Source: Octopus sinensis (lineage: Eukaryota). From it: 64,000 nt of DNA. The DNA lies in NCBI RefSeq assembly GCF_006345805.1, contig NC_043009.1, positions 26,226,001-26,290,000 on the forward strand. Reading direction: 5' to 3'. Below are positions 25,497-29,914 of this stretch, one piece after another. The position numbers and the translations under genes are program-made. Position 1 is the first letter of the stretch; the number at the start of each line of letters is the position of its first letter. The notes beneath the pieces were generated by a model, which was not told the DNA's origin, did no database searches, and saw nothing but the letters and a program-made list of their open reading frames with translations.

Positions 25497-25589
25497 ATTT
25501 TAGCTGATGAGTACGGGACACGTTTATATGCTGTCATTTTTGCAACTTTTAATAAAGCCTGTCCTTGTATGAAACGATTGTACTAAAAA
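25497..25589 (+). ncRNA. Type I hammerhead ribozyme with long stem II
   Basis: Reads UUUUAG-CUGAUGA-GUACGGGACA...UGUCCUUGUAU-GAAAC-GAUU-GUA-CUAAAA. 6-bp stem I and a near-palindromic ACGAUUGU stem III. Confidence 0.85.
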
Positions 25590-26014
25590 CCTATCCATTC
25601 TTGTTGCTTCTTTCTCGCGTACATATATATATATATATAAGCTACAGAAGCAATATTTCTTTGGAATAGCATTATGTATATACTCCTGAAAACCGCAAAA
25701 CAGCACTATTTGTCTGAAAGCCTTCGACGATTTAGTGAACAAAAGCAGTAAGAAGTCCGTTGTATAGTACGTATATATATAAGTGTGTGCGTGCGTGCGG
25801 TTTGTGTGTGTGTGATAAATATTTCTACAAACAGGAATAAGTCGATTAGTGTGTTTAAATGTTCAGGAGAGCATCGGTACAGTTTGGGCTACCTGTTGTC
25901 ATGCGCAGTTGGGGTACACTCCCGTTGGATTTACTTCAGGGACTCCGCAGTGACAGTTAGGGTAATAGTGTAACTTAATAGTAGGAGGTGGATTTGGTAT
26001 TAGACTTTTATTAG

Positions 26015-26059
26015 GTACAACATATGTTTCAAACCATCAGTCTCGGTCTCTTCAGGTAC
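26015..26059 (-). ncRNA. Minimal hammerhead motif (left arm of foldback)
   Basis: Reads GUAC-CUGAAGA-GACC(gagacugau)GGUU-U-GAAAC-AUAU-GUU-GUAC, with palindromic ACAUAUGU. Confidence 0.7.
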
Positions 26060-26138
26060 ATTGAAGAAGTTTCAAGTTAGGACATATAACAACAAGCCAG
26101 CCGCTTGTAAAAATCTCTGGTAAGACTTTTGTATGAAT

Positions 26139-26183
26139 GTACCTGAGGAGACCCAGACTGGTGGCTCGAAACATGTGTTGTAC
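26139..26183 (+). ncRNA. Minimal hammerhead motif (right arm of foldback)
   Basis: Reads GUAC-CUGAGGA-GACCCAGACUGGUGGCUC-GAAAC-AUGU-GUU-GUAC. Confidence 0.65.
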
Positions 26184-26234
26184 CTAATAAAGGTCTAATA
26201 CGATATCCTTCTTCTATTTATTAATATTATATAT

Positions 26235-26440
26235 GTAGTAACCACATGTGAATCGTCGGCGATTTTGTTCCTCGGTCTTCCATTTTAGTGGACTTTCCTC
26301 TGTTTCTAAAGAAGAGCGTTGCTCGAAACGTTAAACCATCTTCCTTTCCTTCCCTGAGTGTCTGCTAATACTTTACATGTACCACGTCTTCGCGTTGTTG
26401 TTTTTTGTGTTTGTTGTTCTTTTATGGCCTTACCGTACAT
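26235..26440 (+). mobile_element. Neptune-type PLE 3' terminus with degenerate HHR (26302-26336)
   Basis: Reads GUUU-CUAAAGA-A-GAGC(guu)GCUC-GAAAC-GUU-AAAC. The downstream cctgag.g.c..ctaatac matches the 11646-11781 terminus, and it ends in (TA)n. Confidence 0.7.
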
Positions 26441-26588
26441 CTTTATATATATATATATACATAATAAGAGATACATATATATATTCATCTATCTATCTAT
26501 CTATTATATATATATATATATATAGTTGAAATTTACAGAAAAACAATAGTCGAAGACAAGTATATGTACACACACACACCCACACATG

Positions 26589-26629
<41 letters not shown>

Positions 26630-26652
26630 ACACATGCATACACACACACACA

Positions 26653-26715
<63 letters not shown>

Positions 26716-26776
26716 ATGTACTGATCTGTGATAGAAAGTTCAACAAAAATAGTACTCCATCTGGTGAGAGATAAAT

Positions 26777-26903
26777 ATTATTACTTAAAGGTCACAATGC
26801 ATGTATTAAAGCGCAACTAAAAGTTTCATATGTTGAGAGAACTCAAACATGTGAAACTATAAGTAGCATTTAAAGGCATGTATTATGACCTTTAAATAAT
26901 AAT
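26777..26903. repeat. Imperfect palindrome between (TA)n tracts
   Basis: ttattacttaaaggtcacaatgcatg...gtttcatatgttgag pairs with ctcaaacatgtgaaac...catgtattatgacctttaaataataa. Confidence 0.75.
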
Positions 26904-27485
26904 AATTATATATATATATTAAACAGAGGGTTGTTCTGCTGTAAAGTGTTTATAAGCGTGTGTGTATGTGTTCGTGTCTCCTTTTCTTGGCCTCGCACGA
27001 TCGTTACGTGCTTCATCATTCAAGCATTCATGTGGTGTTTATTTGTTTACGATCGTCTGTGAAAAACATGTCCGTCAGCCATGGGGAAATATTATCTAGT
27101 TAGAAAACAGATGAAGGTTGGCGACAGGAAGTGTATCCAGCAGTAGAAAATATGTCTCAACAGTTTCGTTCGGCTTCCTACAGGCAGAGAAATGTGGATA
27201 CTAAACCATGGTGAACGATTGAACTGACGAATGGATGTCACCGAATTTGGAAGTTATGTATTTATCTTGTTCTTCAACACTCACGTTTTTTTATATAATA
27301 TACTCTTTTGATTTCCATTATTTTTCTTAAGAAGACTTCGGTTTCTGATTCTCTGAACATCACTACAAAAAAAATTTGTCTTCAGTTTATTTATTTATTT
27401 ACATATTTTTAAAAATCAGAAGTATGTAGGGGTGAGAGGTTTTACAGTGTTGCTTTCCATTTTTGTAAATATACGTTTACGAATT

Positions 27486-27533
<48 letters not shown>

Positions 27534-27738
27534 AAATAGAAAGATGAATAATCTTGTAGTAGATTAATCAAAAGTTTAACCGATACCTTAGTAGCAAAAA
27601 TCACAGCAGTAAACAGCACGGTTGGAGGTACAACCATATGGTGTTGCAACCGTGCGTTGGTGCGGATAATTGAAATTAAAACATTATTGGTGAATTGAAG
27701 AAATGGAGCTGAACGCAGATTGAACAGAAATCGTTTTA

Positions 27739-27827
27739 TTTCATTCTACACGTGTTTCGAAAGGCACAAATTACCAAAATCCGATTGAATAATGGGACCA
27801 TATTGTGTCTTTCTCTTCAGGAAGAAA
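27739..27827 (-). ncRNA. Type I hammerhead ribozyme
   Basis: Reads UUUCUUC-CUGAAGA-GAAAGACACAA...UUGUGCCUUUC-GAAAC-ACGU-GUA-GAAUGAAA, with perfect palindrome ACACGUGU in stem III. Confidence 0.9.
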
Positions 27828-28418
27828 ATAGGAAATCCGTTGGAAAAAACAAAAGCAGAACAGAGGCGGAGCAAAAACAAATCGAACTATGCTCCTAAGA
27901 GCCCATGGCGAAACTGTTTATCAGTGTATGTTGAGAACCGATGACTGAAGAATTTAACGGGTCAGGCATCGGTCAATCATGTGGGTGAGGGTGTGTAGGT
28001 GTTCTTTGTGACCGAGAATAAAGTTCTGACTATTTAAGGAATATTGGATGTTTTATAAGGGGCGAGAAAAAATCTACTTAGAGACGTGTGTGTGTGTATA
28101 CTGTTCTATATATGTGTGTGTTGGCGTAGGGGTAGAAAACATTTTTTGTGTACGTGTGTGCGTTTGATCGTTCGGCTGTCAGTGGCTACTGCCGTGAGAA
28201 CCGTTAGGTGGCAGAAAAAAAAAATATATATATTATGTTTTATGTGTGTGTGTGTTCATCTAAGCCTGCCTTGTCAAGGAAACCCCCCGCTGTGAAAAAA
28301 CCAAGCCCCGTTTGTCTTACAGGAGTAATTCCCCTTGCAGTGGTTAATCGTAGATATCTTAAAGGCTATTTCAGAATTTGTTACCAAGGGCTATGGGTGC
28401 CGGTATTATTTATAAACG

Positions 28419-29640
28419 CTATTTAAAAGCCAGATAAGTGTAACGCCGCCAATGGGGGCATCGAAAAGCCGACTGTAAAAGCCCGTTTACCATCCGGCCT
28501 CTGGCAAACAAAATATGGAAGAGTTCGGAGACACAAAGGTTGCACTGCCTTCTGCCCCTATCAAATGGGAGGGCCACCGACAAAATTGACCATTCCAGCC
28601 TGTAGCTTAAGTTCGTATCCTTCAGTCGCCATATTAGCTTACTGAGTCCCGTGGTCTGGCGCTTGTTCATGTCCCGAAAAGTTGCGTAATCGTTGGAGAC
28701 ACGCAAAGACAATCTTGAGGATGAGGCCCCTACATAAGTGAAGACATCTGAGTCCGTGTAAACCTTGCATTGGTAGACGGCGTTTTGTGATCTTGGAGTT
28801 CGCCGACGTGAATCTTATTCTGCTAGGATTAGTTTCTGAAATTAGAACTGCGTTCCTGTCACTATATTCGTTCCGAGACCTGCAGCCGCTTACTACTCTA
28901 TTTTCCACTACGTCCTATTAACTATAGGAATAACCCCTGATTCTCCACTATCTATCAGAGTGCTGTCATTGCTACTGCCCGTGGTGCTGCTATTGCGGGA
29001 AATGATGCTGGGGATGCTATTGGGGCTCTCTACCCTACTCCCATTGTTACCGTCAACCACAACACCCCTATTTATAACTATACCCCTAGTGGGTACTCCC
29101 TGGCTGGAGCTGAGATTATGTGTCACTGTACTGGCTCTCATATCATTATTACTACTATAATTATTCCTACTGAGCATTAACCGGAGCGGAAGAGGCTGTG
29201 CCTCCGGAAAAAGGTGATAGGGTCTTAGTAAGTAGCCTATTATTATGGGAGGCGATTATCTGGGCGGTTTTTAGTGTTGGAGAAAGCTATCCTAACTTTA
29301 TGCGAGTTAACCGTGGAGTAATATTTGGAATTTCTGGGGAAGTTATTGGCGATGGCTTGTCTAAACATGAGGGGGAGGTTAGTTCTAATCTGCTTACCAA
29401 AGGGGATTACAAACCATATATGCTTATTCCTATCAGTGTGATGGGTCGGGACGCCAGCTCTCGCGTTCGGGGGTGGTGATTCTCGGATGAATAACGGGTC
29501 TTGGGTTAGTGTAAGACCTCCCGGACCGATAATTATCCTTGTTCGCTAAATTAAATGCGGGAGCGACTACCCCGGCATCCGCCGCGCTCCCGTCCTTACT
29601 TAAAATGTTAATGTTATTATATACGGCCCTATCCTGATGA
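28419..29640 (-). pseudogene. PLE linker and GIY-YIG endonuclease (frameshifted)
   Basis: Motifs HIWFVIPF...ANNFPRNSKYYSTVNSHKVRIAFS, then NAVYQCKVYTDSDVFTYVGASS, then LSKLIWRLK...LEWSIL..ALPF...CNLCVSE...CPH. Confidence 0.85.
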
Positions 29641-29827
29641 CCGGTCACAAAGAACACCTACACACCCTCACCCACATGATTGACCGATGCCTGACCCGTT
29701 AAATTCTTCAGCCACCGGTTCTCAACATACACTGATAAACAGTTTCGCCATGGGCTCTTAGGAGCATAGTTCGATTTGTTTTTGCTCCGCCTCTGTTCTG
29801 TTTTTGTTTTTCCAACGGATTTCCTAT

Positions 29828-29914
29828 TTTCTTCCTGAAGAGAAAGACACAATATGGTCCCATTATTCAATCGGATTTGGTAATTTGTCCTTTCGAAACA
29901 CGTGTAGAATGAAA
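29828..29914 (+). ncRNA. Type I hammerhead ribozyme (inverted pLTR copy)
   Basis: CTGAAGA at 29835, GAAAC at 29895 and cleavage triplet GTA at 29904-29906. Same stems as 27739-27827. Confidence 0.9.

Follow-up and report, generated by a model that had tools for sequence, protein, structure and literature searches.

Type I hammerhead ribozymes are known from the pseudo-long terminal repeats (pseudo-LTRs) of Penelope-like elements (PLEs). Their presence there, their arrangement in opposite-strand pairs, the occurrence of thousands of solo motifs, the insertion of elements beside older copies and an octopus Hydra-clade family associated with (TA)n are already in print (PMC8557442, PMC4209133, PMC6765202). 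In the minimal PLE hammerheads of Cervera and de la Pena (2014), dual motifs on opposite strands lie 100-700 bp apart and solo motifs number in the thousands per genome (PMC4209133). For cephalopods, the squid genome paper gives 235 Rfam hammerheads, and the words 'ribozyme' and 'hammerhead' are absent from the main text of a 2026 octopus repeat annotation (cited among PMC6962438, PMC13282606); a search of the cephalopod literature revealed no hammerhead census among the matches listed. The present analysis concerns a stretch of 64,000 nucleotides (nt) from Octopus sinensis (assembly GCF_006345805.1, contig NC_043009.1, positions 26,226,001 to 26,290,000), hereafter the window, in which six hammerhead motifs on both strands lie within 4.4 kb. 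These are very probably the 3'-end hammerheads of four separate PLE insertions into neighbouring (TA)n tracts, and their proximity would be a by-product of insertion with no joint function.

The motifs were located by searching for the layout of a type I hammerhead (helix I, CUGANGA, an optional extra base, helix II, GAAA, helix III, UH). The strict form of this descriptor demands an exact core, a palindromic helix III of the type AC..GU, at least three pairs in helix I and at least two in helix II. Applied to the window, it returned six matches, five in the cluster plus the motif at 16(+), versus none in each of 60 block-wise dinucleotide shuffles; permitting one core mismatch added motif C and another at 11776(-), for a total of eight. 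Within the cluster the core start and the last base before the cut are, respectively, 25504 and 25582 for A (+), 26055 and 26019 for B- (-), 26143 and 26179 for B+ (+), 26306 and 26332 for C (+, G5A at 26308), 27820 and 27747 for D- (-), and 29835 and 29906 for D+ (+), i.e., four motifs on the plus strand and two on the minus strand. An earlier sequence-only reading had placed six motifs here on both strands and had predicted cut ends at 25582, 27747 and 29906; the motifs are where it put them, and its three ends coincide with those derived from the descriptor.

Each of the six has candidate strands for helices I and II together with GAAA, a UH site and a helix III complementary to itself (8/8 positions in A, B and D; 4/4 in C). 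The core CUGANGA...GAAA...UH is exact in A, B-, B+, D-, D+ and in the motif at 16(+), here called E. It is broken in C by a copy-specific G5A, and in F, a family represented outside the cluster, by a family-wide A6U. Complementarity supports the helices of A, D-, D+ and C; helix II is damaged in B- and B+, and the predicted probability of helix I in the monomer is at most 0.18 in all six. The window is 36% GC and rich in microsatellites, in an assembly of 2.72 Gb. The Rfam model Hammerhead_1, used at its gathering score on the window and six family loci, gave no match at all, the best candidate (26137-26185) scoring 19.3 bits against a threshold of 34. When the whole window was scanned with Rfam by E-value, the 150 matches listed of 189 were all to microRNAs and driven by microsatellites.

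Since the motifs at 26015 and 26139, and likewise those at 27739 and 29828, are inverted pairs, the six belong to four families and derive from four insertions, not six. Self-comparison of the window reveals only inverted pairs within 25.4-30 kb, and all four insertions are bounded by (TA)n or TA-rich ends. The claim of at least five unrelated families thus has to be reduced to four for the cluster; five are reached only across all nine motifs that had been listed for the window (A, B, D, E and the related C/F). That list itself stands in part: the six cluster motifs are confirmed, 16(+) is canonical, the one at 11744(-) has the non-canonical core CUGUUGA, and 20288(-) is doubtful.

Insertion A (22019..25639, +) is a young, 5'-truncated Hydra-clade PLE with (TA)n on both sides. 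Its plus-strand piece (23538-25639) carries the CxCX5C linker, seen in translation, the GIY-YIG endonuclease and a 3' region of 1.6 kb, and its inverted piece (22019-23544, -) extends from the thumb of the reverse transcriptase (RT) to the middle of the endonuclease and lacks a hammerhead. Identity to longer natural copies (L259, L261) is 95-98%, and loci L259-L262 give matches to a Hydra profile. Hammerhead A (25498..25588, +) comprises a 6-bp helix I, CUGAUGA, a 60-nt helix II arm, an 8-nt palindromic helix III and GUA, with the cut after 25582. Among the intact motifs it alone lacks an antisense partner in the locus, and it is complete in 40 of 41 other best-matching copies; the differences seen in a related motif (L156) preserve helix pairing (G-U to A-U and similar). 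A pattern search of the genome found 1,050 exact copies of the 5' half of this motif (reversed-pattern control, 0). The 3' region of family A also contains a direct repeat of approximately 105 bp, 80% identical (25059-25163 and 25215-25320), in every copy that reaches there, and the family has two 3' ends, one short and one longer.

Insertion B (25783..26237, both strands) stems from an old Hydra-type PLE whose 3' end is present as a head-to-head inverted pair, 25783-26074 on the minus strand and 26078-26237 on the plus strand, with 80-87% identity to other copies. In three of five extended B loci (L254, L256, L258) the same strand carries, 1.0-1.3 kb upstream, the remnant of a Hydra-type endonuclease, and in L256 an inverted B pseudo-LTR abuts this remnant; of the other two, L255 gave no match and L257 an RT piece only. 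Hammerhead B- (26015..26059, -; cut after 26019) has an exact core and a decayed helix II, which is closed by a G-U pair and contains two mismatches; it is likely inactive. Hammerhead B+ (26139..26183, +; cut after 26179) has the core CUGAGGA and one C-C mismatch in helix II, whose 5 bp all pair in 17 of 33 other copies.

Insertion C (26238..26445, +), a short non-coding element of about 205 bp, starts at a fixed 5' end and is flanked by (TA)n on its 3' side; it likely derives from a pseudo-LTR and is non-autonomous. Its ends are fixed in most of 29 copies; three share a longer upstream sequence, and it is 73% identical to F over 75 nt. Hammerhead C (26302..26336, +) is of the minimal type, with a helix III of ACGU only and an extra A after A9. 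G5 is present in 26 of the 29 other copies. Replacement of G5 by A abolishes hammerhead cleavage, and this copy is likely dead.

Insertion D consists of a main copy (27530..29643, -) and an inverted pseudo-LTR (29642..29968, +). The former is a young Hydra-clade PLE, 5'-truncated in the linker and bearing frameshifts, with its endonuclease at 28419-28814, a 3' pseudo-LTR and a 3' end formed by a 150-bp tail (27530-27680) followed by (TA)n; it is 98-99% identical to other copies, and the 5' half of its motif has 2,933 exact copies in the genome (control, 0). The latter spans 327 bp, is 97% identical to 27681-28014 and passes without a tail into (TA)n. Hammerhead D- (27744..27823, -) has a helix I of 3 bp (6 with a bulge), CUGAAGA, a 55-nt helix II arm, a palindromic helix III and GUA; it is intact, with the cut after 27747. 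Hammerhead D+ (29832..29909, +; cut after 29906) is alike save for two 1-nt deletions in the outer helix II arm. The window copies of A and D both contain frame-breaking single-base indels (23100-23750 and 28780-29270) that are absent from the contigs of other copies and may represent real decay or long-read errors.

The sequence-only reading had assigned the cluster to type I, dimer-type hammerheads of PLE pseudo-LTRs. This holds for A, B and D, which on sequence grounds are Hydra-clade PLE hammerheads tied to RT/GIY-YIG frames; C, too, is probably a PLE pseudo-LTR hammerhead. With the Hydra-clade PLEs of Craig et al. (2021; PMC8557442), among them Hydra-1_Obim, these three share a single frame of RT and C-terminal GIY-YIG, DKT, CxxC and CxH around conserved E and N, and the lack of CCHH, as well as a (TA)n target, an inverted 5'-truncated copy, an optional tail and a type I hammerhead near the 3' end. 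They differ in their helix II arms, which measure 60 nt in A and 55 nt in D, whereas the longest Hydra loop 2 in File S2 of that paper is 10 nt, and the hammerhead listed for Hydra-1_Obim has a sequence distinct from those of A, B and D. Family D departs further in its greater length (a 3.6-kb unit encoding ~895 amino acids), in keeping one of four linker cysteines and in a tail of 150 bp versus the 30-40 bp described. The Hydra motifs (RWK, DKT, CxxC, CxH, no CCHH) were read by eye against section 11 of PMC8557442. Poseidon PAc of Anolis (PMC11167929) also resembles D in having short and tailed 3' ends, an AT-rich target and a pseudo-LTR hammerhead; it belongs to another clade, its hammerhead overlaps the start codon whereas that of D lies ~330 bp before the frame, and protein-assisted cleavage has been shown for PAc.

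The protein of family D was examined in several copies. An intact frame of 899 codons with RT and GIY-YIG motifs is present in L013. Pfam did not recognize the D frame, and 399 relatives were found among 8,000 scored candidates, one of them named from Argonauta. Alignment with 17 relatives shows RWL, DKT, CNLC and CPH in D and no CCHH; the relatives mostly have RWK. The CxCX5C linker is present in A and in all 17 relatives, whereas D keeps one of the four cysteines in 20 of 20 copies, and about 190 extra low-complexity residues occur in D (window 28780-28900, copies L001-L020). D is filed here as a Hydra-like variant. (TA)n adjoins 22 of 24 D ends in L002-L020, the 3' end being short in 11 of the 24 and bearing the 150-bp tail in 13. 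The cysteine linker has been proposed to mediate (TA)n targeting in the Hydra clade (PMC8557442); family D appears to keep this targeting without it, a reading put forward tentatively together with that of family F below, and one which would separate linker from targeting, against the association proposed there. Another Hydra protein may give help in trans. In full-length copies L021 and L024 the identical D hammerhead is found twice on one strand, 3,621 bp apart, as tandem pseudo-LTRs, the arrangement in which a double hammerhead can presumably form.

The following course of events would account for the locus. Each motif would have evolved to serve its own element's transcript (pseudo-LTR, open reading frame, pseudo-LTR), in which two identical copies ~3.6 kb apart, as seen for D in L021 and L024, would pair through the palindromic helix III, probably aided by the element's protein. 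The element endonuclease would nick TA-rich DNA, so that insertions would crowd into TA-rich patches. TA-directed insertion with frequent 5' inversion would in this way have stacked four insertions here, two of which doubled as inverted pseudo-LTRs. This account builds on structure, linkage, counts and complementarity; from these we infer the inactivity of B and C, duplex trapping and the lack of joint function. The cluster itself would then illustrate a pile-up of TA-targeting PLEs, with hammerheads on opposite strands as a normal PLE footprint.

How unusual such a density is was judged against a background of 80 stretches of 10 kb, taken at round-number positions on 29 contigs (C1-C29) and hence not a formal random draw. 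These 800 kb contain 20 motifs (0, 1 and 1 in shuffles), or one per 40 kb, which extrapolates to ~68,000 in the genome (95% interval 41,500-105,000). Six motifs in 4.4 kb exceed this background. The surrounding 279 kb hold eight motifs versus 7.0 expected. Proximity to TA repeats is pronounced, with 13 of the 20 sampled motifs within 300 bp of a (TA)5 run versus 29% of random positions. Beside 106 family loci, motifs of other families are 2.5-fold above background (16 in 257 kb, p=0.007, after removal of 5 of 21 flank motifs as unmasked same-family copies of B). Counted by hand among the first 100 motifs listed for each family, 60 of A and 58 of D sit in inverted pairs within 8 kb, and therefore occupation of both strands is the default arrangement; same-strand neighbours number three pairs (A) and one pair (D) in the same sets. 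Clusters of at least four motifs per 4.4 kb are expected ~14 (Poisson) to 190 times in the genome. Given the genome-wide load and the local enrichment, the window is rare yet expected.

Several points weigh against this account. The cluster is a real upper-tail event, found in 0.03-0.5% of 64-kb windows, a figure that is based on 20 sampled motifs and counts motifs, not insertions. The cores of A, D- and D+ are intact, and the helix III sequences of B+ and D+ are fully cross-complementary (8/8), helices I not being so. Folding predictions leave out proteins and kinetics, and a transcript starting inside a pseudo-LTR would escape a duplex trap. By analogy with an axolotl ribozyme having a 2-bp helix III and a tetraloop, which reached 22% monomer cleavage in 1 h (PMC7229834), A need not be silent. 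Finally, the parent open reading frame of C was not found, and no Neptune frame lies upstream.

The sequence-only reading had gone on to propose that read-through RNA of either strand would meet several self-cleavage sites, the nest acting as a hotspot for cleavage or termination and releasing small or circular RNAs. Six motifs in 4.4 kb, five of them with exact cores and with both strands served, favour this, PLE pseudo-LTRs are said to hold promoters (review PMC6765202), and tandem hammerheads yield circular RNAs in retrozymes (PMC7229834). We nevertheless regard a hotspot as very improbable. Retrozyme circles require head-to-tail repeats of one family, which are absent, and the locus contains no second compatible copy on the same strand. 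No mixed same-strand pair among the six has more than 1 bp in both cross helices I; no in-cis double hammerhead can therefore form, and hetero-dimers among the six were rejected on account of these incompatible helices. The substitution in C and the damaged helix II of the B copies argue in the same direction. In the B and D inverted pairs the arms stand head-to-head, so that whichever strand is read through, the antisense arm is transcribed ahead of the hammerhead. Folding predicts a duplex of 325 bp and about -595 kcal/mol for D and of 76-89 bp and -103 to -125 kcal/mol for B, and in such duplexes B+, D- and D+ would be trapped. Single minimal PLE motifs are inactive and their dimers weak in vitro (PMC4209133), and the Anolis PAc hammerhead needed the element protein, was dispensable for insertion in vitro and showed no RNA-seq ends at its cut site (PMC11167929). 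A and D are moreover 97-99% identical to many other copies, and the cluster is therefore recent. The earlier reading was thus correct in its observation and in its family assignment, and its hotspot is not supported.

Two more modest proposals are compatible with four independent insertions as the source of the cluster. Only A could cut, weakly, either as a monomer or with another family-A RNA, and slight cleavage of plus-strand read-through RNA at 25582, by monomer, by trans dimer or with the aid of a Hydra protein, is conceivable though unlikely. The intact core, the 6-bp helix I, the lack of an antisense copy in the locus, the helix-preserving differences in L156 and the activity of the axolotl monomer favour it; the prediction for the monomer with 25-nt flanks (helix I probability 0.05, helix III 0.01-0.02) does not, and the effect would hold equally for ~1,000 other A copies. 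Somewhat less likely still is that transcription of the locus, if it occurs, matters at the RNA level less through self-cleavage than through long duplexes formed by the arms of D (325 bp) and B (76-89 bp), on which A-to-I editing or small-RNA pathways could act. The duplex energies and the 97% identity of the arms would suit this. Coleoid cephalopods edit their RNA heavily. The sequencing contigs, on the other hand, are not assignable to this copy. The 23 sequencing runs are represented as contigs, and none is recorded as RNA. Among 8 of them (six presumed RNA, two unlabelled), contigs cover A and D in all six presumed-RNA runs with family-type letters, and at 29643 the A/D contigs run into the element body, not the inverted arm; they therefore come from other copies and speak neither for nor against transcription or cleavage of the locus. 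No listed contig of the presumed-RNA runs bridges the B/C or the D-inversion junction, and no pile of ends was reported. With 52% of the sequence repeat-masked, no frame of at least 50 codons appeared exon-like by eye, and eight window frames gave no significant match to Pfam.

The most remote of the explanations is an artefact of assembly that created the cluster or the inverted pairs in it, or else chance matching of the motifs. The single-base indels of the window A and D copies, which other copies lack, are what long-read errors would leave. Against this stand the empty shuffles, the recurrence of the same inverted structure at many other loci, and the finding that, with a pattern that imposed no palindrome, helix III is nonetheless self-complementary in 77 of the first 100 matches (hand count) versus 14% by chance. 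Furthermore, a 318-nt contig from run X16 is identical to the window over 26003-26320, a span that takes in B-, B+ and C. The B and C defects therefore exist in the DNA behind run X16, although this run is possibly the one from which the assembly was made. A reading of the locus as retrozymes was also rejected, self-comparison having revealed no head-to-tail tandem. Non-LTR retrozymes (PMC7229834; bioRxiv 10.64898/2026.07.22.740005) are likewise type I, with a short palindromic helix III, derivation from PLE pseudo-LTRs and very high copy number (126,247 in axolotl), and they differ in being head-to-tail repeats of one 150-450-bp unit that yield circles, whereas the octopus locus has four units, two of them head-to-head, and no tandem.

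The main weight of the findings falls on family F and on the genome-wide load rather than on the cluster. The window copy of F (11640..12830, -) is a 5'-truncated Neptune-type PLE with an endonuclease remnant at 12588-12830 and a hammerhead at 11744-11781, in whose core, CUGUUGA, A6 is replaced by U. Translations of L247-L249 and L263 show a Neptune-type frame (RT, a CX2-5CxxC linker and a GIY-YIG endonuclease with CCHH), the Pfam matches (RVT_1, E 8e-7; GIY-YIG, E 0.004) both falling just under the curated cut-off. The features shared with Neptune-clade PLEs are RT with a C-terminal GIY-YIG (weak in Pfam), a CX4CxxC linker, a C-C-H-H endonuclease, (TA)n flanks and a minimal hammerhead; the clade was read from motifs. 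Family F differs from that clade in core position 6, which is U in ~99% of exact matches, the whole-genome pattern search giving 13,318 exact copies with CUGUNGA versus 140 with CUGANGA. Some F copies form same-strand tandems 270-620 bp apart (L218/L229, L244/L245, L300).

Of 24 F copies gathered irrespective of their core, 20 have U at position 6, two have C, one has A and one a gap; position 7 is U in eight, A in eight, G in four, C in three and a gap in one; and H17 is A in 17, U in six and G in one. Elsewhere in the motif 1 of 26 columns has a majority below 80%, compared with 20 of 86 columns in the flanks (Fisher p=0.024). In a tree of 59 rows, made with the variable positions set aside and five rows left out (two short; three tandem twins or rearranged, tallied with one gap row as further exclusions), support is modest, at 6 starred branches of 56; on it N7 changes seven times and marks subfamilies. 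With the unbiased rows only, N7 changes six times and position 6 twice. An ancestral A6 subfamily was considered and rejected, the 18 A6 copies (17 picked for A6, one unbiased) being scattered across all subfamilies, with 18 changes at position 6 and mostly the local N7; six of the 18 fall in the oldest F clade. Confinement of variation to N7 and H17 would fit selection on the hammerhead fold, but the conservation of loop 2 is just as high, and recognition by a protein is therefore an alternative.

It is possible, and we advance it tentatively in conjunction with the readings of D above and of the load below, that the commonest single hammerhead of this genome is a lineage-fixed core variant, family F having kept CUGUNGA through about six successive subfamilies and more than 13,000 copies with change only at N7 and H17. 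This would point to a ribozyme deliberately weakened or rescued by protein, or to a fold retained for some part in retrotransposition other than cleavage. A natural A6C variant is known with a rate below 0.1 per minute (PMC3088659). In the parts of PMC4209133 covered, U3-A8 is the sole core variant and CUGUNGA does not occur, and no report of an A6U or CUGUNGA hammerhead was among the literature matches listed, supplement file 2 of that paper included; Lunse et al. 2017 and supplement file 1 of PMC4209133 lie beyond this search and may hold one. Family F offers a natural test of the role of PLE hammerheads, a core base treated as invariant having been replaced across a lineage while the fold was kept. 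If A6U cleaves, alone or with protein, the hammerhead consensus widens; failure to cleave would mean that selection maintains the fold for some other purpose.

As to the load, pattern counts for the whole genome gave 13,058 minimal motifs with a canonical core (reversed-pattern control, 127), 13,318 of family F (control, 0) and 12,578 with a 4-nt loop III and a short helix II (control, 792); all pattern counts together come to ~42,000 net, a lower bound. Minimal motifs thus number at least ~26,000, against the loads of 2,000-9,000 per genome in PMC4209133. C, E and F resemble the minimal hammerheads of that paper in lacking a helix III loop, in the extra nucleotide after A9 and in the G10.1-C11.1 pair. 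Standard annotation overlooks these motifs, Rfam having found none of the eight in this window, and the PLEs of this genome may have spread some 42,000-70,000 hammerheads that Rfam misses, a suggestion offered with the same reserve as, and jointly with, that on the A6U lineage.

Exact-core matches in 1.79 Mb of compared DNA fall into 19 sequence clusters. Helix II arms of 51-84 nt, which exceed every Hydra entry in File S2 of PMC8557442, occur in eight of these. Further types with such arms (L122, L175, L222, L185, L119, L008), and with 12-nt helix III palindromes in L122 and L210, would likely escape standard descriptors. A minimal type related to C, with a CCGACGA core (L150, L178, L201, L103), often has U4C (3 of the 20 motifs sampled), perhaps as a mutation of one subfamily or as another fixed variant of the core.

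The remaining motifs of the window lie at a distance from the cluster. The one at 16..57 (+) is a minimal hammerhead with a canonical core and resembles a common genome-wide type. The candidate at 20288(-), with its core at 20324, was not counted as a hammerhead because it has AU..AU in place of AC..GU and so lacks C15.2-G16.2, is contained in one arm of a near-perfect hairpin of ~160 nt (20251..20418, -; -75 kcal/mol) and has no match in the compared loci. Other long palindromes are found at 8934-9179, 19791-20018 and 26771-26909. In one of the compared loci (L252:349-1881, -) a frame of 511 codons resembles, by eye, the RT region of a non-LTR retrotransposon and is unrelated to PLEs. A multi-copy interspersed repeat, also unrelated to the hammerheads, occurs in the window on both strands at 70-90% identity (3300-4400, 17750-18480, 36450-36680, 56650-56810 and 59080-59460).

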